64,000 nucleotides of DNA from Eledone cirrhosa. Its lineage: Eukaryota. Shown here piece by piece: positions 9,737 through 63,468 of this stretch. Both the position numbers and the translations under genes were made by a program. The notes beneath the pieces are model-generated. The model saw only the letters and a list, made by a program, of their open reading frames with translations, ran no database searches and was not told where the DNA came from. The stretch lies in NCBI GenBank assembly GCA_964016885.1, contig OZ024740.1:308760001-308824000 (forward strand). The letters are read 5' to 3'. The first letter of the stretch is position 1, and each line of letters opens with the position of its first letter.

Positions 9737-10045
9737 CGTTACTTGCATCAGGTTTGAACCACTCTAGCGTTGGTGGAACGGCCCCTGCACAGACCAACGG
9801 AAGCTTGCTGCACAACGCTGCCTACAGCTATAATCACAGCAGTGCAGGTGGACCAAGTCTACCTCCGCTGCCACCCAAAAAGAAGCCACCAGCCCCTGTT
9901 CCACTGCCATCAACTGGCCATACAAGGAACTGGTCAGAGCCCAATGCCTCTTTCTTGGGTCATCATCGTACACCATCAGACCCGCAACCTCCACGGTTCA
10001 AACCACCCAGTCCTGAGAATCGCAATACCATGCATGTACCTGTAG
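9737..10045 (+). CDS. ASAP: ASAP-family ArfGAP, Pro-rich exon (309 nt, phase 1-1)
   Basis: Acceptor tattttgcctcatcag and donor G|gtaagg. Encodes LLASGLNHSS...PSLPPLPPKKKPPAPVPLPSTGHTRNWSEP...GHHRTPSDPQPP, similar to the ASAP Pro-rich region (HKRTLSDPP-like). An in-phase alternative acceptor would start the exon at 9752. Confidence 0.85.
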
Positions 10046-20679: not shown

Positions 20680-20719
20680 GTTCCAAGGTGGTATTACAAA
20701 AGCCTGCTGAATCGGAGAG
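20680..20719 (+). CDS. ASAP: ASAP small exon (40 nt, phase 1-2), GSKVVLQKPAESE
   Basis: ttttttaccattcttgtccccccacag|...|gtaaga. It supplies exactly the phase 1 to 2 change needed between exon 9737-10045 and exon 59710. Confidence 0.8.
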
Positions 20720-33800: not shown

Positions 33801-36769
33801 AAGTACTTTTTCTTCTTGTTGACACTCTTACAATTATATACTTCTCCAGCATATCATGTCTTTTGATGCCTAGTTCAGTTGCTTTCTTACCTGTGCTCAA
33901 ACTTTGTTGTAAGTTAACATAGCATACCTCAAGGATCTTTTCTTTAGTCCATGAATAGATTCTAATATGCAAACCATGTCATCAAATCCTGAGCCCCTTT
34001 ATCTGTGATTAGATGGTTGGATTTTACAGGTGACCACCACTACCACCATCATAATCCTCATCATAACATTCATATTTTCAATGTCATAGAGACATCTATT
34101 ACCTGACATATGTGTTTTCTGACAGCTCTGCCTTATCTTTCTCAGGCCTATACAAATGTTCAACTGCTTATCTCTGTACTTTTTAATCATCAAATCCATC
34201 AGAGATTAGTTTTGCTCTGCTGAACCATAGTCATCATGTATATTCCTTCTTTAGATCCAAAACATTGTAGTTGTCATTGTTATCATCCCCAACATCCTCA
34301 TCTGTAGATATTAAGATAGGTTCACCTACTGGTTAGGTATGTTGTTATTTCACATAAAACTTCTTTAACAATCTTATATTTGTCATATTTGTTTAGGTTT
34401 CCCCTTTTATTAATAAGTCATCTGTTGTTTAGTTCAAGGTCAACTCTCTGACCAAGAAGATTTTTGGACAAACATATTTCAGCCATGGCTATCCTGTTTT
34501 GTTTTTTTTTTGCTTTTTTTTCGGACATAGTATATCTAAGGCTACATTATACAAAGTGTCCTTTATTTTTTAAGTCAGTAGGCTGTGATTTGAAGGAAAT
34601 TTGCCTGCTATTTCTAACAGATCGTGTAGTCACATAAAGGCTTTCTTGTTGGTTCATTACTCCCTTTTGAGCCATCTTTTTGTGTTTGATGTCTGTATAT
34701 CTGTGTGTATATATTTATGTTGATTTCTCTGGCCAGAAATGAGGATAAATAAACAAACACTTCTAAAAGAATAGTGTCTTCTATATTTTATCTATTGGGG
34801 GGGGGGGGGGGGGTTCTTGCTGGGGTATGGTTTTGACTTCATATTCAGATATATGAAAATCGTACTTCACTGGTTTATTAAAAGAGAGAGTTAACATAGT
34901 AAGGACTTATGAATTCCTGCTGCTGATACCATAAAAAAGTGTACTTTGTCCAGAAAAATATTACGGCCCAATTGTTATGAGGTTAAGTGGTCTACTGAGT
35001 ATATTATCCTGAGTTAAAATCTTACTACTAGAGCTATGGTGTCGTGTCTCTTGAACAAAGCATCTAATTCTGATTATATCCAGTTAAACTATCCGGCATG
35101 AAAAATGTACATGTTCGGCTCTCTACTTCACAGTTAGTTATAAAAAGGAACATTCATCAGCAAAAACCATCAAAGATATTCTCAGAAAATTAGCATTGGG
35201 TACCACTACCATACTTATCTTTGAAAAAACTGGATAGTATACCAACTATACAATGCTTTTTGCATTGTTATTTGGCAGATGAAAACTTGTAATTAACCTG
35301 GCAAGTTTTCATTGTTGACTGTGTATAAGATGTTATACTTTCCATTACATAAATCTTTTTGTGCACCTCCTCCTTATCAGTACTTATTCCATGCTTTTTG
35401 TTCATTCCTCAAAAACTCACACTCAAATCCTTTTTTTGTTAATCTCATTTTGAAATTACTATGCATGTATGTATATATGTTGTACATTTCTTGTTTATGA
35501 GATGTGATTTCAAAATCACTGCAAATATTTCATTGTGTGCCTGTAGGTAGAGAGATGTTTTATGACATTGCATCAATTTGGCTATTAGTGGGAATAAAAA
35601 AACAGATTACCTAGGGATGTCTCCTGCACTAGACTAGCCTAATATACAAGAAGGAACTTGTATCTCTTAATTTAAATATGTTTTTGTTCCAGCTATGTGT
35701 ATAGATGTGTTTGAATGGAAGTGTATGTAGTAGAATTAGTTTGTCTGTGAGGATATATATATATAATAGATTTAAATGTTTATTATTATTCCAATCCTTT
35801 TTATATATCTATGTGCATATAGTAGACATGTATGTATGGTCCTCTAACTCCAGCTGTGTGTATTTCTGTTTATGTCTCTGTCAGTGTTAGTGTATGTTAA
35901 TTTATGCTGTAGTAGATCACTGTAGAGCACAGTTGTAGATCACACTTCTGTATATATGACACACCTATTGGTGTGCTATTTAGTTCTCTGCACCACACAC
36001 CTAAATTATAGGCTATGATTTATAGGTCATAAACATGCACAATATCACTATATGCAGTTTTTGTAGGCAGTCAAGATTCTTAAAAGGTCAGTTATAAAGA
36101 TTTAAGTCAAATCTCATTGTATGGTCAGTTATTGTTGATTAGTTCTCAAATCAGCCTTGATCAAGCAAATTTATAATCAATGATGTTCAACACATAATCA
36201 TCTTAATTTATATTCAAGCATAGTATATCTAGGATTGAATTTTTCAATGCGCCATTTCCTTGTTTTAAGATAACAGAATGTGATTTTAGAGAAATTTAGC
36301 TGCTGTTTCTATTTGGTTGAGCAACTGTGTAGTTGCTTATGTGTTATCAGTTTTCTAGACGTGTTATCTTACCTGTACTACAGAGCATATTGTCTTTAGA
36401 TTTATCACTTAGAAAATATGTGTTCTTTAAACTAATGACACTAACATATTTGCTGTAGGAATATTTGGTCACTACATTGATTAAATGCAACCATATAAAA
36501 TCTCTATTGCTACCCCTATGAGGTCCCTATTTTTAAGAGGGGTAAGGCCTTTGTTGTGGAAAATTCGAGTGACCCTTTGCTGGTTCAAGTGTATGCAGTG
36601 GCTTGTTGTTTTGTATGATTTAGTCTTTGTCACGTTGTGAAGATGTTATTCTTGTTGTAATTTGCCAGTTCAAACACTTGATATTTCCCAAGCAACTCAG
36701 CTCACAATCATTTTAAGAGTTTTTCCTTCATTTGCTTGTTTTTGTTTTGATTTTTTTTCTTGCCCTCAG

Positions 36770-36790
36770 AGAACGGCATTCATGTGAAAG
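36770..36790 (+). CDS. ASAP: ASAP 21-nt microexon A (phase 2-2), (R)ERHSCE
   Basis: Long U-rich tract, then ttcttgccctcag|AGAACGGCATTCATGTGAAAG|gtaagt. Consensus donor and frame-preserving. Confidence 0.75.
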
Positions 36791-39234
36791 GTAAGTTTAT
36801 GTCACCATCACTATTCTTGTTACCAACACTTTCATTATCACTAGCATTGTCATTGACACCTGCACAACCAGCATCACCATCAGCTCATCATCATCCCCCT
36901 ACCATCACTGCTACCATTACCAACATCATTACAATTATCATCATCATCATCATCACTTGCACTATTAATTTCCTAATCAGCATCAGCACCACTGCCACCA
37001 CATCACCATCATTATCTTCAATACCTTTATCTCAATTATTCCATTATCATTGCCAGAAATGTCTTGACCTCTCTATATAGTGAAAATGGTGATCTTATGT
37101 GTTCCTCTTGAATCCTCATCAGACTTCATCAGCTGAAATCTATAACATACTGGTCTAATGATATATCAGAAAGTCCATGAAGAACTGTCTTGGACGTCAA
37201 TGAGTTTTGGGAACATTTTCTAGATTGCTTATATAGGGATATTGAGGTGTGGGTGCCTCTACATGAGGGCTGTATGTAGAAGTTATTGCTATTGCTTAGT
37301 TCTAGATCTGCAGTCATCTATGGTCAAAGGTGTTTCAGCTTTGGCTATCATCTAGTTTTGTATATTTTTTTTACTACATTCACCAACATGCCCTTTCTTT
37401 TTTTAGGGTGAGGAAGATTTGACAGCTATTTTTAGCATGTCAAGCAACTGTGTAAAGACTTGTATGTTAAAGTATGTTATTACTGTTGTTCCTTAATACC
37501 TTGCATACTTGATGATATGGAACTACTCATTGCATGTCTCACATTAAATGACAGCCACATTGATTGAGACACATTAAAAAAAAACAAAGAGAATCAACTC
37601 AGGATTTTTTGCTATGACTCAAAGCACATGCCTCTTTAAGTAGATTCTCTGCAATCAAAGATGACACAGATGCAGACTTAATAAAATTGTTTTTTATTAA
37701 CGACCTTAATTGTGTTCTGATTCTCTCGGACCTGATTTGCCTTTTTGCAGTTAGAATGAGCATTTCCTCTTAGATCAGAAGTATTTTATGCTACTAGCAA
37801 GGACGTTCATCATTGGCACAACAAAATTTGCAAAATTTGTATGGTACATCCACTTCAACTACACATGGTCAGGTGGTTAAGGAATTCACTTTGCAACCAC
37901 TTGGTTCTGGATTCAGTCTCATTGCATGCCACCTTGGGCAAGTGATTTCTATAACAGCCTCAGGTTGACCAATGACATGTGAGTAAAATTTGGTGGACAG
38001 AAATTGTACAGAAGTCCATCATTTGTATATGTGTGTATTTGTGTGCCCATTCAAGTCTTTATTTATTTCATAAATTAGTAGTTAAAAAATGAGAGATTGA
38101 TAAAATAATTATGAAGCTTGAAAATATAAGTACTGGAGTTGATATGATTGACTAAATCTGGATGAATAAGCAACTCATGACCAACAGCGGTAAACTACTG
38201 TGGGAGATGGAGCAATGAGTAACACCTGATCACCCAAGAAAACTTTCACAACCCATTAGTGTAGCTATGACAAGGCGAGTAATGGTTGCCTCTAAAAAAT
38301 GCCTAGTCATCGCAGGTTTGAGAAAGTACCAGATTGGTGGGAGGTAAGAAAGAGATATTCTGTACTTAGTCTATAAATTTTGGATCAGTCTCAAAAGCAT
38401 CAGCTCCATTATTCAGATAAAGCTGACTCACAGACCATTAAAAGTAAATGTAAACCCTTTTCACAGAGTTGGACATATGGTTCATTGTAAGAAGAATATA
38501 ATGAAATGTCTTGCAGGTGCACCCTGGATTAACGTGGAGTTGTAAAAGAGACATAATCTGGATTAACGTGCAGTTGTAAAAGCTCAATTAATATCAATTG
38601 AACAAATACCCCCTAAATATCTTTCCTGGAGTACATCTGCTAAATATGATCATGTTTTCTATACAATGGCATTACCAACTTCTCCATCTCCTGTAGAGCC
38701 ACTATTGCTAATATTCAACCTCCAAAAACGTCCCATGCCATCAATACTATTAAATCATGTTAATCTTCACAGCAACCTAATGAGTAGTGCAACTCAAACA
38801 TGTAGGAGCTGCTGAATGACAAAGAGAATTTGGAAGCTACAAAGATATAACTAACATGATTTATCTTTCATGTTTGGAGTCATGCTGTATTTTTAATATT
38901 CTATTATTGATATGTAAAGATATCCAGTCAACATCTGTACACTGCATCTATTTAGCCAGTCTGTAATATCTTTGTTATGCTAATGTTGTTGTAATGTTGC
39001 ATGCATTTGGCATGATTGTACATAGTCATAACTAGATAAAGTTACTACTAGTTTGATGTTAAGAGACAGTTTTATAGTGGTCTGCCAGGGTGACATTGGT
39101 AAATTATGATGCTTAGTCATAACAGATGTCTGAGGTTTTGAATTTACTTTGTACATAGATATTTGATTGAACATTTTGGCACAAATGTTTAGAGGAATAA
39201 TATCTGCCCCTACTTTAGGATGTTGTTATTTATC

Positions 39235-39412
39235 TCAGTATTGGTAGAGGGTCGGACGCCATGCTTTGACGCATAGAGTTACGGCCTTTGCCATTCTGAG
39301 TTCAAATCCCGCTGAGGTTAACTTTGCCTTTCATCCTTACGGGGTCGATAAAATAAAGTACCAGTAATACACTGGGTAATTGCTGGCCTTGTGCCTAACG
39401 TAGAAACAGTTA
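39235..39412 (+). mobile_element. SINE family A (short variant)
   Basis: Closely similar to 1970-2155. TTATTTATCTC flanks both sides. Confidence 0.85.
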
Positions 39413-41378
39413 TTTATCTCCAGCTCATCTTAACTGACTAGACCTATTCTAAAAAATGCTACAGTTCTGATCATCCCATCTTTTTGATAAATCAAGGACT
39501 ACATTGTTCAATGTATCCTTCTTTATTTAATACTGTAGGATTTGATTCAATGGCTAGTTGGCTGTTGTTTCTAGTTACCATATAAAGGTTTCTTCATTTA
39601 TTTTTTGTATTGGATGACATGAACAAGAATTGCTGTTTCCATGGGCAGTCACTATAGAATTGCATGTATGTTGCTATTGTATGTATGTAGATAGGTATAT
39701 ATGTATGTGTGTATATAGGTAGGTATATATGTATGTGTGTATGTAGGTAGGTATATTTGTGCGTATGTATGTATACACATATTTTCCTTTTTGTGTAAAT
39801 CTTCTACTGTAGTAAACTTTGCTTTCTGTGTTCCCTTTGTGGGTACAACAACCTGCCTAATCTTCTAGGAAATTCCCAAATATTTCAGTATAGTCCATCA
39901 TTGATTACTGTTGTTGAACAAATCTTATTTCTGCTACAATGACAAAATAAAATTCTAATCTATTGTAGGTGTATCTATTGTAGTGTCTCTCAAACCAAAC
40001 ATTTTAGTTTACATGTCCTCTGTTTCCCAAGCTCTCAGGTGAAAATATGCATTAGTTCACCTGGGAATTTTACCTATTTGTTAATGGAGATTTCGCAGCA
40101 AGCTATATTGAGCAGGTTAAAGGTCTATGTAGAAGTCTCTTTTTGTTGATTTTCTGTTATAGTTGTACTATTTTGCTGTTGTAACATTTAACCCTTTCTT
40201 GACTATATTTCTAATGTGCTTCAATTATTGTTTTTTTTTTTTAGATAATCAAGAATTTGGAGGGGTTTAGTAAAATAACTAACTTGTCATTATCAACATA
40301 GTATTCAAAATGGCATCCAACCAGTTCGTTGTTGGTCAATTTGTCAATTTATTATTAGCATCCAAATCAGAATATCAGAGTTATTTCATTGTTATTTTGG
40401 TTTCAGTTTGTATTGTATAATCTTTTAAGCTTACAGTAAGCAAAGCCTTTCCTTTATAATGGACACATTAAGATTTACTTAAAATGACACCTACTGGATG
40501 ACACCTACATTTAACACCTACTAGACTCCATGAGTTTAGAAATAATTTCCTTTATCATGAGCTTAATATGAATTGAAACCAGAATAACAGAATGAAATAA
40601 TTTAATAACATTCTGACTTAGATGCTAACAATGAATTGACCAATGATGAATTAATTGGCAACAAATTGTCCTGGCATTATTTGGAACATAATAAAAAAGT
40701 TTCTTATATAAAATTATGATGAGAGGCTTTAAATTGGTTTTAAAACAAGAGGTTTTATATCATAGATCCAAAGACATTATTGAATGTGTGTGTGTTGAAA
40801 GGGTTAATATGCTTGGATCAGATAGCCATAGATGTTATATAGATATGTTTTCTTTTCGTTTTTTGTTTCGTTTTTTTCTGTCTCATGTAAACTACAAAGT
40901 GGTGCAAGAAATTCCAAGACTTTTGTACTACCTTTATTTTCTTTGTGAATTACTTGATGGTAAATAATTCAAACCATTCAAAGAATTTTCTTTCTTTTTC
41001 TTTTAGTTGTTAGGTACTTTTGAATGTGTCTTCTTTTTCTGTGAATATATGTTTACAAATATTTTTGTGCTTTTAACCGCCCTTTCATTCTGATATTGCT
41101 TCTCATGCCTGTCAAAGAAACAGATCTCATAGCATACTTGAAAATTAATGTTTGTGGGATCCAACAGCTGAAGTTGATTGAAATCAAACTGTGGAAGAAA
41201 AATTGTTCAATTCCACTCATTTCTAAGCTCATTACATGTAATAGTATATAGATATGTTAGATATATGCTAGTGAATCCATGCTACATATAACTATTAAGT
41301 TCCTGGTGCAGCCAGTTGTTGGAGTGTTACTCTAAACAGTTAACTGGATGCCCATCATGGCATGTCAGTTAGCCTTAA

Positions 41379-41599
41379 CCCTTTAGGATTTAAAGCAGCC
41401 ATGTCTGGCCAGAATTCTCTCACCTCTTTCTGTTCAAACTGGCTATAACTGGCCACTCATAATGATGTTAAGGTACTGTTCTCAAAATAAATAATATCAA
41501 AATCTCATAGATTCAATATTATGTGAGATAATTAAGTGAGATAAAGCCTTTACTATGAAAATACAATAGTAAATATAGAGTAATGTAAATGCTAATGGG
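41379..41599. mobile_element. piggyBac-like MITE (family of 13903-14109)
   Basis: TTAA|CCCTTTAGGATTT ... AAATGCTAATGGG|TTGA. Confidence 0.75.
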
Positions 41600-42125
41600 T
41601 TGAAAATACATAGCAACACCCATCTCATCTCCTAGCATGTAGACCCTCACTAAGTTTAGCAGAAGTAGTTATTGAAGTGTAGCTGAAAAAATGTATGAAA
41701 AATATCCATCATTTCTAAATAATTTATTTCATGTATCATATTATCATCATCATAATCATGACTTCTTCAAGTCTGACTGGCATTACTTGAACTATGTAGA
41801 CACAAATTGACAAATATTTCACTTTTTTTTTTGTTTCGCTTTTTTTTTTATTTATTTCGTAGAATCAGTACAGTATCAGACAAAATATCTTGTAGCATTT
41901 AGTTGCATTTGTTTGTTCTGAGTTTGAGTCTAGTTGATGTTGACTTTCACAGTCAACATCCTGATATTGATGAGACACAGTAGCGGTTAAGTACCTGAGT
42001 CAGTCTCTTTCCCAAAAATACTTTGACCTTGTGTCTAGATTTGAAAACAAGTATTTTCATATAATCTTCATCAAAAGAAAAACATTATTTGTCATTATAT
42101 ATATAGATAGATAGATAGATAGATA

Positions 42126-42248
42126 ATGTAAAATCCCGACAGCAGCACCAAGCACTTGGGATTTTACATATTTCTATACCCACTCTGCATTTCCCCATAC
42201 ATTGAATACTCCCATAATTAGTGGTCTCCCCAGTCTCAGCACCACAGA

Positions 42249-42250
<2 letters not shown>
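42126..42250. repeat. Second copy of the hairpin-headed element, loop inverted relative to the 32540 copy
   Basis: ATGTAAAATCCC-loop-GGGATTTTACAT followed by the same body ending GTCTCAGCACCACAG. Confidence 0.75.
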
Positions 42251-42281
<31 letters not shown>

Positions 42282-43636
42282 GATAGATAGATATAATCAT
42301 CATCGTTTAATGTCCACTTTCCCTGTTAGCAAGGGTTGGATGTGTCTACATTGACCAAGTCAGTACTGGAGCAGGGCTACTGATCTCCCAGACAGGCTGC
42401 GGGGGGTATCCTGCTTATGTACTAAAGGTACTTCCTAACCCTTTGTTTGGCAAGCCTTCTATGGCTAGATGCTCTTCCTAAAACCAACCACTTTACAGCA
42501 TGTTCTGGGTGATTTTATTGTGTAGATCATCTGCACTAGAGAGCATGTGTATTATTTTTTTCCTTCCTATTACAAGAGTAACAGAGAACTGTTTGAAATG
42601 ACAACTCAATACAGAATAGTGGAGAATATATATTTTTTATCAGGATAAATTGTCAAATGCATACACACACATACACACGTATATATTATATAACATGCAT
42701 ACAATGAATTTATTTTATTTACCTAAATTATCAAAAGATTTACAATTTACAGAAAGAAAGTAATCAGGGAAAGGAAACAAAAAGCAAAAGAAAAAAGAGC
42801 AGCAGAAGGCACTCACACTGAATTACAAGCCACAATAGAGGAAACTGGGGTTTCCTTCTAATAATTTTTTAGGAAAGCCAACACATGGTATTTCACATAA
42901 GTAATAGCAAGGATAAGGTGCTGGAGTAACCAAAAAAATAGTTTCCCAATAATTCCTAATATTTTAGAATTTTATTCTGTCCGACTATGAATACTGTGAC
43001 CCTCACCTTTGCTGCAGCATCCAGGATATGAGACTCCTTTCCAACATGGACTAGATCCAACAGGGAGGTGACGGAGCCTTACTACAATGAAAGGAACTGG
43101 GTTTGTCAGTTCCTGATGTAAAGCAGGATAGATTGAAGCAGAGAGTTTTAGAGACATTTTCAAATCTTTCATTGATCAATTTGATCAATACTGATATTGC
43201 CGCTTACTTTTTGTGAGTGCCAAATTTTTGAAGCTTTAAATGCTATTGTATCAGGCCTCTTGACTTTATGGGCCTTCATAGATAGTCTTGCCACCTGAAT
43301 ATAGATCGCTTTGCTCATCATATCAAGCTAAACCTAGAAACCAATTTCTTGCAGTCTTGTACAATTTATGTGTTACCTCCTATAGTAAAATCAGTCTAAT
43401 TTTGTCAACATGTACTCTCAAATACGTGCTCTATTATTGTGATTAATTATGAAATATTATAATACATTACTTACAATTAATTATAAGTCTTTTCATATCA
43501 AAATACATAATTACATTATAGATAATTGGTGGCTGATTAATTGCTAATTTGCATCCCTAATATACATACATACATGTGTGTGTGTGTATATATATATATG
43601 TTCATACATAGAAAAAAAGTGCTACCTAAAGATATT

Positions 43637-43670
<34 letters not shown>

Positions 43671-44313
43671 ACACACACAAGTAATTTTGTCAGAATATAT
43701 AACATCTCAATGAAAAGAGATCACTAGAATAATCTCATTCAGAGAAGCAAATACATATAGAACATCCCGAGGGAAAGATGCATCAACAATAATCTACCTA
43801 ACAATGATTTTGTATAAGATGTTCTATATATATATACACACACACATAAATATTCAAAATAATTTAAAATATGTTGGGGGTTTGAGTGGATAGCATATGT
43901 AATTCTGTTTGGGCTACATCTCCACACAGCTTCTGATAACAATATATAGATTCTAAAGACATTAGCAAAGATTTTTCTGCATTATGGTTTTTTTCTTACT
44001 TTATGTCTTGTGTGTTCAAAATGGCAGTTCTTCCATTGTTCAGGCCTGACTTCCATGTATAAAATTCGTTCAATTCCATTGCTAAATTATGTCTGTCTCT
44101 TCTGACTTATGCATTCTGTTATTTCATCTCATGTCCTTTGATAAATCCTCATCCATTTTTACAGGTTGATTTATTATTATTATTATTATTATTTGTTTTT
44201 GTTTTGTTTTTTTTAATTTCTTTGCCTTTTTCTTCTTCTTCTTCTTCTTGTAGCCTTTCTTTGATAACTTACTTTGTATCTTACCCTGTACTCTTTTCAT
44301 TTTCTGCCCTCAG

Positions 44314-44334
44314 ACAAAGATATTCATATGGGAG
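44314..44334 (+). CDS. ASAP: ASAP 21-nt microexon B (phase 2-2), (R)QRYSYG
   Basis: tttcattttctgccctcag|ACAAAGATATTCATATGGGAG|gtaagt. 14/21 nt identical to microexon A. Confidence 0.75.
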
Positions 44335-59709: not shown

Positions 59710-59771
59710 TGTCCTCCCTCCACCTCTCCCACACCCTCGCAGTACAAGAGCTTCCTCTTTGAATAGTGCTG
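59710..59771 (+). CDS. ASAP: ASAP exon (62 nt, phase 2-1), SVLPPPLPHPRSTRASSLNSA
   Basis: tcttttttctctgcag|...|gtaagt. Pro-rich, and the phases match the neighbouring exons. Confidence 0.85.
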
Positions 59772-61138: not shown

Positions 61139-61257
61139 ATTTGACCCAACGTAATGACCGAAGTCGTTCTCGTGACAGAATTGATCCTGGGGGGAGAGTT
61201 GAAGAGACTCAGGGTAAAGACTTTGTAGCACCACCTGTTCCTGTTCCACGAATTAAG
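61139..61257 (+). CDS. ASAP: ASAP exon (119 nt, phase 1-0), DLTQRNDRSRSRDR...APPVPVPRIK
   Basis: ttctgtttcag|...AAG|gtatgt. The PVPVPR motif matches the PVPLPR segment preceding the ASAP SH3. Confidence 0.88.
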
Positions 61258-62490: not shown

Positions 62491-62616
62491 AAAAAATCTA
62501 ATGGTAGAAGACGCTGTCGAGCTAAATATGATTGTGATGCTGATAATGAGGATGAGTTGACATTTAAAGGAGGAGAAATAATTATTGTCCTCCATGAAGA
62601 GGAGGAAGAGTGGTGG
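62491..62616 (+). CDS. ASAP: ASAP SH3 domain, first exon
   Basis: RRCRAKYDCDADNEDELTFKGGEIIIVLHEEEEEWW. The YDCxADNxDELTF signature is characteristic of ASAP SH3 domains. Splice sites ttccag / gtgagt. Confidence 0.95.
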
Positions 62617-63393: not shown

Positions 63394-63468
63394 GAAGGTG
63401 AAATTGATGGACAACCTGAAAGACGAGGCTTGTTCCCAGTCAGTTTTGTAACTATGCTACCTAACTGA
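63394..63468 (+). CDS. ASAP: ASAP SH3 domain, terminal coding exon
   Basis: cttctcttttcag|EGEIDGQPERRGLFPVSFVTMLPN*, resembling vertebrate ASAP GHIEGQPERKGVFPVSFV. Confidence 0.95.
   Translation, partial: EGEIDGQPERRGLFPVSFVTMLPN

Follow-up and report, generated by a model that had tools for sequence, protein, structure and literature searches.

The question raised by this stretch of Eledone cirrhosa DNA (assembly GCA_964016885.1, contig OZ024740.1, positions 308,760,001 to 308,824,000 of the forward strand; all 64,000 nucleotides (nt) of it are referred to here as the window) is whether two 21-nt segments in a 39-kb intron of an ASAP gene are a duplicated pair of microexons, and whether such a pair would act as a switch. 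The host gene of both segments is ASAP, of BAR-PH-ArfGAP-ankyrin-Pro-rich-SH3 architecture; Pfam identifies the BAR, PH, ArfGAP, ankyrin and SH3 domains on the Octopus sinensis orthologue (P0001), whose exons are collinear with the genome from ~57 kb upstream of the window through position 63468. An ArfGap domain match lies 19 kb upstream of the window, and the Pro-rich exon matches O. sinensis ASAP (83% identity) and two decapod-type proteins; the domain set, the exon order and these Pro-rich exon matches bear out the gene assignment made in an earlier sequence-only reading. The answer that we consider somewhat favoured is that the second segment, B (44314..44334, plus strand, as are all window features below), is an optional cassette of coleoid ASAP, that the first segment, A (36770..36790), goes back to an old tandem duplication of B and is likely still spliced in some cells, and that the pair would form an insert switch.

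Exon B, which encodes RQRYSYG, is a genuine alternative microexon, as the sequence-only reading had proposed. It is included in five of the eight O. sinensis RefSeq isoforms (X1, X3, X4, X5 and X7) and skipped in three (X2, X6 and X8; the accessions of X1-X8 are XP_029635612-16 and -19 and XP_036357669-70), and at the A/B junction it is the sole difference between X1 and X2. An alternative cassette microexon is at most 27 nt long, preserves the frame and has both included and skipped isoforms, all of which is true of B. Altogether 36 cephalopod-type proteins were compared, of which 30 span the junction (12 octopod, 18 decapod-type), with protein clusters represented by part of their members (the best 15 of 21 for the decapod cluster). 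RQRYSYG is found in 9 of the 12 octopod records, its residues unchanged in all of them, and no insert in the other 3. Decapod-type records have no insert in 16 of 18 cases, while one carries RQRYSCG (P0033) and one RYMQNE (P0034); these last two are Logan fragments that extend over more than one exon junction (several in each) and match full-length proteins of cuttlefish type at 98-100% identity, P0033 being 100% identical to a cuttlefish-type ASAP over 127 C-terminal residues. B is common to octopods and cuttlefish and is already in O. sinensis RefSeq. The O. sinensis isoforms share with E. cirrhosa the gene, the junction and the RQRYSYG insert, but none of them has exon A, and they come from a different octopod-type species (83% over the Pro-rich exon). 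The warning that gene predictors miss exons of this size fails for B, which is annotated in Octopus, but stands for A in the compared records; the B half of the pair is already in RefSeq and the A half is a new, predicted exon.

Two further observations concern the junction. An in-frame AAG six bases inside B could yield a 15-nt form, RYSYG (44320-44334), which is absent from all spanning records. The six-residue RYMQNE of P0034, a Logan record of cuttlefish type, sits at the A/B junction and has no counterpart in the E. cirrhosa intron: no 18-nt RYMQNE-like exon was found in this intron, where the best of 88 candidates scored 11 and had poor splice sites, and RYMQNE has only a forced Arg and the final Glu in common with A.

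Upstream, the intron is bounded by a 40-nt exon (GSKVVLQKPAESE; 20680..20719) that ends in phase 2, and whose G-x-K-x-V-L motif is also present in ASAPs of gastropods, nemerteans and insects. Nine non-cephalopod isoform sets, in several of which the motif was unrecognisable, showed no isoform indel directly after the GxKxVL-type exon, so B looks coleoid-specific. These sets drew on the best 15 of 52, 23 and 19 cluster members, and P0329, P0330, P0337, P0342, P0350, P0219 and P0376-P0380 were left out as fragments or near-duplicates.

The particulars given for the pair in the sequence-only reading are all exact, namely the coordinates, the shared acceptor TGCCCTCAG, the donor GTAAGTTT following an exonic AG, the 14 of 21 identical exon nucleotides, the 2-2 phase and the peptides RERHSCE (A) and RQRYSYG (B). 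That A and B are paralogous, also claimed there, is upheld by a 47-nt homologous core that starts late in the pyrimidine tract and runs through the exon into the donor, and which at 81% identity (E 4e-6) is the only significant match between the two regions (BLASTN, 3 kb against 3 kb, dust on); in 1.5 kb of flank on each side no significant homology was detected by the same method. Each shared 9-10-nt splice motif is present exactly twice in the window, where 0.31 and 0.16 copies would be expected, and two copies were reached in 4/100 and 1/100 shuffles. Identity at 14 of 21 positions is by itself not rare, being reached by 22 of 22,915 AG[21]GT segment pairs, many of them simple or dispersed repeats. 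The pair is nevertheless accepted as real because A and B are the top two by splice score among 1,587 in-frame AG..GT segments of 3-60 nt in the intron, and because, of 105 segments of their length, they are the two most similar to the cuttlefish-type peptide (scores of 34 and 29, the third being 11), with A in second place. Only four strong short-exon candidates occur on 144 kb of sense strand (the 40-nt exon, A, B and part of the 62-nt exon downstream), against one in the antisense control. Furthermore, a degenerate A/B pattern, which was built from the two segments and shows uniqueness only, has no match in the 3.0-Gb genome other than A and B, which therefore do not belong to a repeat family.

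Joining none, A, B or A+B to the flanking exons leaves an open reading frame in all four cases. Between A and B, three of the seven nucleotide differences are synonymous and four of the seven residues differ. Contigs of three sequencing runs, which may be the assembly's own source, cover each segment with few or no differences. Metagenome scans yielded no cephalopod copy: the degenerate microexon pattern gave 0 matches, and P0034 was matched at five loci over its SH3 part only (residues 72-157). The A-B interval also contains very high-copy repeats (~39236-39414 and 41404-41595), SINE-like (resembling short interspersed elements) by size, with contig depths of hundreds of thousands to millions.

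A itself is an unannotated duplicate and a candidate exon, and its use in a way that matters for translation is judged probable. Its donor has the best score among the short candidates of the intron, and its acceptor is identical to that of B at -9..-1. A also retains the Cys of cuttlefish-type B, which all octopod B records lack, and because of this the duplication appears to predate the Cys-to-Tyr change of octopod B; by parsimony this suggests a duplication older than the split of the E. cirrhosa lineage from Octopus, with the caveat that a single transition could recur. Because similarity to B persists in the exon and its splice sites but not in the flanks, A is likely to be an old duplicate of B held under purifying selection.

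Two observations weigh against use of A: its peptide is present in none of the 30 spanning records (0/12 octopod, 0/18 decapod), all from other species, and it is missing even though RefSeq resolves eight O. sinensis isoforms. The rival explanation that survives best takes up this absence and proposes that B is the only working microexon, A being a silent or near-silent relic of a short duplication, or an untranslated decoy that tunes B inclusion. A very short duplication that never included the flanks would equally leave homology over 47 nt only, and A has diverged from B at four residues while B is constant across octopod records. However, a neutral copy older than the Cys-to-Tyr change of B should have lost its donor, tract, frame and Cys, whereas in A the tract and frame are intact and the ancestral-type Cys persists beside the top-scoring donor, and the records that lack A come from other species and from clusters of which part of the members is shown. 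We therefore regard a relic as unlikely, although it is the most serious competitor of a spliced A.

How the two exons would be chosen is a separate matter. The sequence-only reading had allowed for a mutually exclusive switch, but a built-in switch of this kind is not supported. Mutually exclusive splicing is known to be enforced by incompatible splice types, by steric hindrance at distances <50 nt, by frameshift or by RNA structures that compete with each other (PMC5740500). Here A and B, 7,544 nt apart, are too distant for steric interference, both donors are GTAAGT and U2-type, A+B stays in frame, and no docker/selector stem was recognised, as 47 of 60 control pairs equalled the best shared complementary site (20.2 bits; the search covered Watson-Crick stems in one species). 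As none of the known mechanisms applies, the simplest model is that A and B are independent cassettes selected by trans factors; exclusion by trans factors is possible. A strictly exclusive pair (none, A or B, never both) enforced by a dedicated mechanism would be consistent with the equal length and phase and homologous peptides of the two segments, and with cuttlefish-type transcripts in which RQRYSCG and RYMQNE occur as two single inserts, from two slightly different sequence types. It would also fit the count of 0/30 records with two inserts, but so few records include any insert that the lack of double inclusion has little power, and with the spacing, donors, frame and stem search described above such a mechanism is quite unlikely. 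Seven-residue exons are known among tandem duplicated exons, seven being the minimum length in a curated set (PMC9741552), and A and B resemble such substitutions (PMC9741552; PMC5740500) in being consecutive homologous exons of equal length and phase with seven residues each; they differ in that a skipping isoform exists, A+B is in frame and the tested exclusion mechanisms are inapplicable.

That A is a chance look-alike or repeat fragment unrelated to B is very improbable and largely refuted: the commonness of 14/21 identity and the presence of TGCCCTCAG-N21-GTAAG at 21 genomic places, 17 of them apparently one repeat family, could be read this way, but the repeat copies are without the pyrimidine tract (8-10/20 against 17-18) and align to A over 13 nt only, at the motif, while A ranks second of 105 by peptide similarity and is one of the four strong short-exon candidates. 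Derivation of A from this family was rejected on the missing tract and the 13-nt alignment. The dispersed family itself (L017, L018, L022-L027, L029-L037) is unrelated to the two microexons.

Neural, eMIC-driven inclusion of A and B is plausible and could go either way. The genome contains a Srrm234-like gene with a match to SRRM_C (PF15230; 29.3 bits, cut-off 27) at C22:28167743-28167880 on the minus strand, a domain that we take to be the eMIC. The exon concerned ends GSPSHLDKRRIT and the downstream exon, in frame, reads SARKRPVPYHRP, so that the SRRM_C/eMIC region is split over two exons ~21 kb apart, the second near C22 ~28146458, also on the minus strand. Exons regulated by the eMIC are reported to be enriched for UGC near the AG (PMC8797185), and UGC is reported in 74-79% of human microexons without being strictly required (10.1101/2024.09.17.613571). 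The U-rich tract and acceptor of A (36730..36769) has TGC at -37 and -9 and an AG-exclusion zone of 48 nt, and the pyrimidine tract and acceptor of B (44256..44313) has TGC at -9 and a zone of 58 nt, the TGC at -9 being common to A and B by descent. The pair is like eMIC/SRRM3/4/Srrm234 microexons in preserving the frame, in not exceeding 27 nt, in having UGC near the AG, in belonging to an ArfGAP trafficking gene and in the presence of the regulator domain in the genome.

Several observations count against eMIC control and neural restriction. Among 24 other acceptors of the same ASAP gene, 5 likewise have TGC at -20..-6, the AG-exclusion zones of A and B fall within the 15-103 range of other acceptors, and UGC is a weak marker of eMIC dependence at this locus. 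The acceptors of both exons are strong, with 17-18 of 20 pyrimidines followed by CAG, and rank among the strongest of the gene (by simple count, not a trained score); fly eMIC exons are described as having very weak 3' splice sites (PMC8797185), a feature that neither A nor B shows. B is, moreover, in most octopod models, including every spanning model of other Octopus annotations, a pattern more in keeping with broad than with neural-only inclusion. Of the 16 decapod-type records from Logan, 14 skip both inserts, which fits restricted inclusion, if weakly. As a genome-wide marker the UGC-microexon pattern was uninformative, with 4 matches against 3 in the control.

ASAP genes elsewhere contain eMIC targets: a 9-nt neural exon in vertebrates (zebrafish asap1b DreEX0015073, human HsaEX0006155; PMC12626424) and a 48-nt exon in fly Asap (DmeEX0000248; supplement of PMC8797185). 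The vertebrate microexon sits in the BAR-PH linker (the primers translate to EKKQLT and QGGYSM), whereas A and B follow the Pro-rich block and have strong acceptors. The present gene has a 36-nt alternative exon (HAHHRLSGGSWI) in its BAR-PH linker, ~44 kb upstream of the window (C1, window coordinates -44052 to -44017), within the interval that holds the 9-nt neural microexon of vertebrate ASAP1; Haliotis, Patella, oysters, Mytilus, Liolophura and Lineus have optional inserts like HAHHRLSGGSWI, and the site may be an ancient alternatively spliced position.

The donor of A (GTAAGTTT) is followed by a CAT/CAC-rich, YCAY-dense tract (36791..37040). YCAY is the binding word of Nova, and 27 such words occur in 242 nt after A against 9 after B, which places the tract in the top 0.23% of 3,076 windows; it could be a set of Nova-type sites or a simple repeat, such repeats being common in this genome.

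In the proposed insert switch, A and B would be chosen as ordinary cassettes by splicing factors, with the eMIC acting at UGC and possibly a Nova-type factor at the YCAY words after A, and inclusion would be neural-biased. The site affected lies in a Pro/Ser-rich linker, 3' of the Pro-rich motif block and six residues before PLPHPR, a PxxxPR motif contained in the 62-nt downstream exon (VLPPPLPHPRSTRASSLNSA; 59710..59771), whose peptide is identical in octopod and decapod proteins. The linker is likely disordered, judging by its composition (17% Pro, 13% Ser; without Pfam domains). PxxxPR motifs are ligands of CIN85-type SH3 domains, and CIN85 is listed among ASAP1 partners (PMC6724607). B would insert a basic Ser/Tyr peptide just before this motif and A a Tyr-free, more acidic version at the same place, and the insert may add or remove phosphorylation or binding sites beside the SH3-ligand region. 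Exon mapping places a linker exon ending PVPVPRIK at 61139..61257, the first SH3 exon at 62491..62616, and the last coding exon, with the SH3 end and the stop, at 63394..63468.

Octopod B also resembles a known phosphorylation site. Among 344 non-cephalopod ArfGAP-family proteins, the best matches to B in its context, ERQRYSYGS, are DRQRLSYGA (P0110, 34) and DKQRLSYGA (P0050, 31), in vertebrate-type ASAP1 fragments. The matched Tyr would correspond to 782, calculated as 497+253+32 with spacings taken from P0043 and P0050, which are from different species, and with R497 as the position of a GAP-dead mouse mutant (PMC11799837). ASAP1 Tyr782 is reported to be a Src substrate needed for matrix degradation (PMC4413660). 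The score was reached by 0 of 5,000 target shuffles and by 5 of 400 permuted B queries over the 344 proteins, three queries having been tried; the same permutation control gave 54/400 for A and 288/400 for cuttlefish-type B, which scores at background, and A scores 31 against an unrelated ankyrin helix by chance.

However, the vertebrate motif precedes PPLPPR (385 against 412 in P0110) and B follows it (903 against 827 in P0001), and these opposite sides of the Pro-rich block rule out positional homology of B with the Tyr782 site. A has no Tyr, and in cuttlefish-type B the position of the second Tyr is occupied by Cys, which weakens the Tyr argument. It would be a rather improbable extension of the insert switch that octopods independently rebuilt the Tyr782 Src site as a splice-switchable microexon B through the Cys-to-Tyr change, with Tyr-free A as the off version, kinase control of the ArfGAP set cell by cell through neural splicing, and a parallel RQRYSCG/RYMQNE switch in cuttlefish. 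A literature search on RLSYGAF or ASAP1 Y767 found no paper.

Other parts of the gene are alternatively spliced as well. The 309-nt Pro-rich exon (9737..10045) is alternative, being absent from O. sinensis isoforms X5-X8, and is also skipped by Liolophura and Lineus isoforms, with most SH3-binding motifs lost at once. A 45-nt alternative exon (KFKLRSYLSRSKLKS in O. sinensis) follows RPPPLPPPLNKPT at C1 window coordinates -6436 to -6392, roughly at the place of the Tyr782 motif of vertebrates; in other molluscs this position has optional inserts that are basic and rich in Ser/Tyr.

In the literature searched on microexons in cephalopods, octopus or ASAP1 and on ASAP/ArfGAP splicing, the A/B pair appears in no title or abstract. 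Asap is unnamed in the main text of a 20-species splicing study that includes O. bimaculoides (10.64898/2026.09.05.749416), and another paper on the subject covers it in fly and mouse only. Cephalopod microexon programs are barely described, and the present locus is a small case, open to testing, in which a lineage-specific microexon duplicated and diverged in ASAP, whose splicing is also under eMIC control in flies and vertebrates, at other positions. Furthermore, should the resemblance to the Tyr782 site prove functional, a phosphosite would have been regained by convergence and placed under splicing control.

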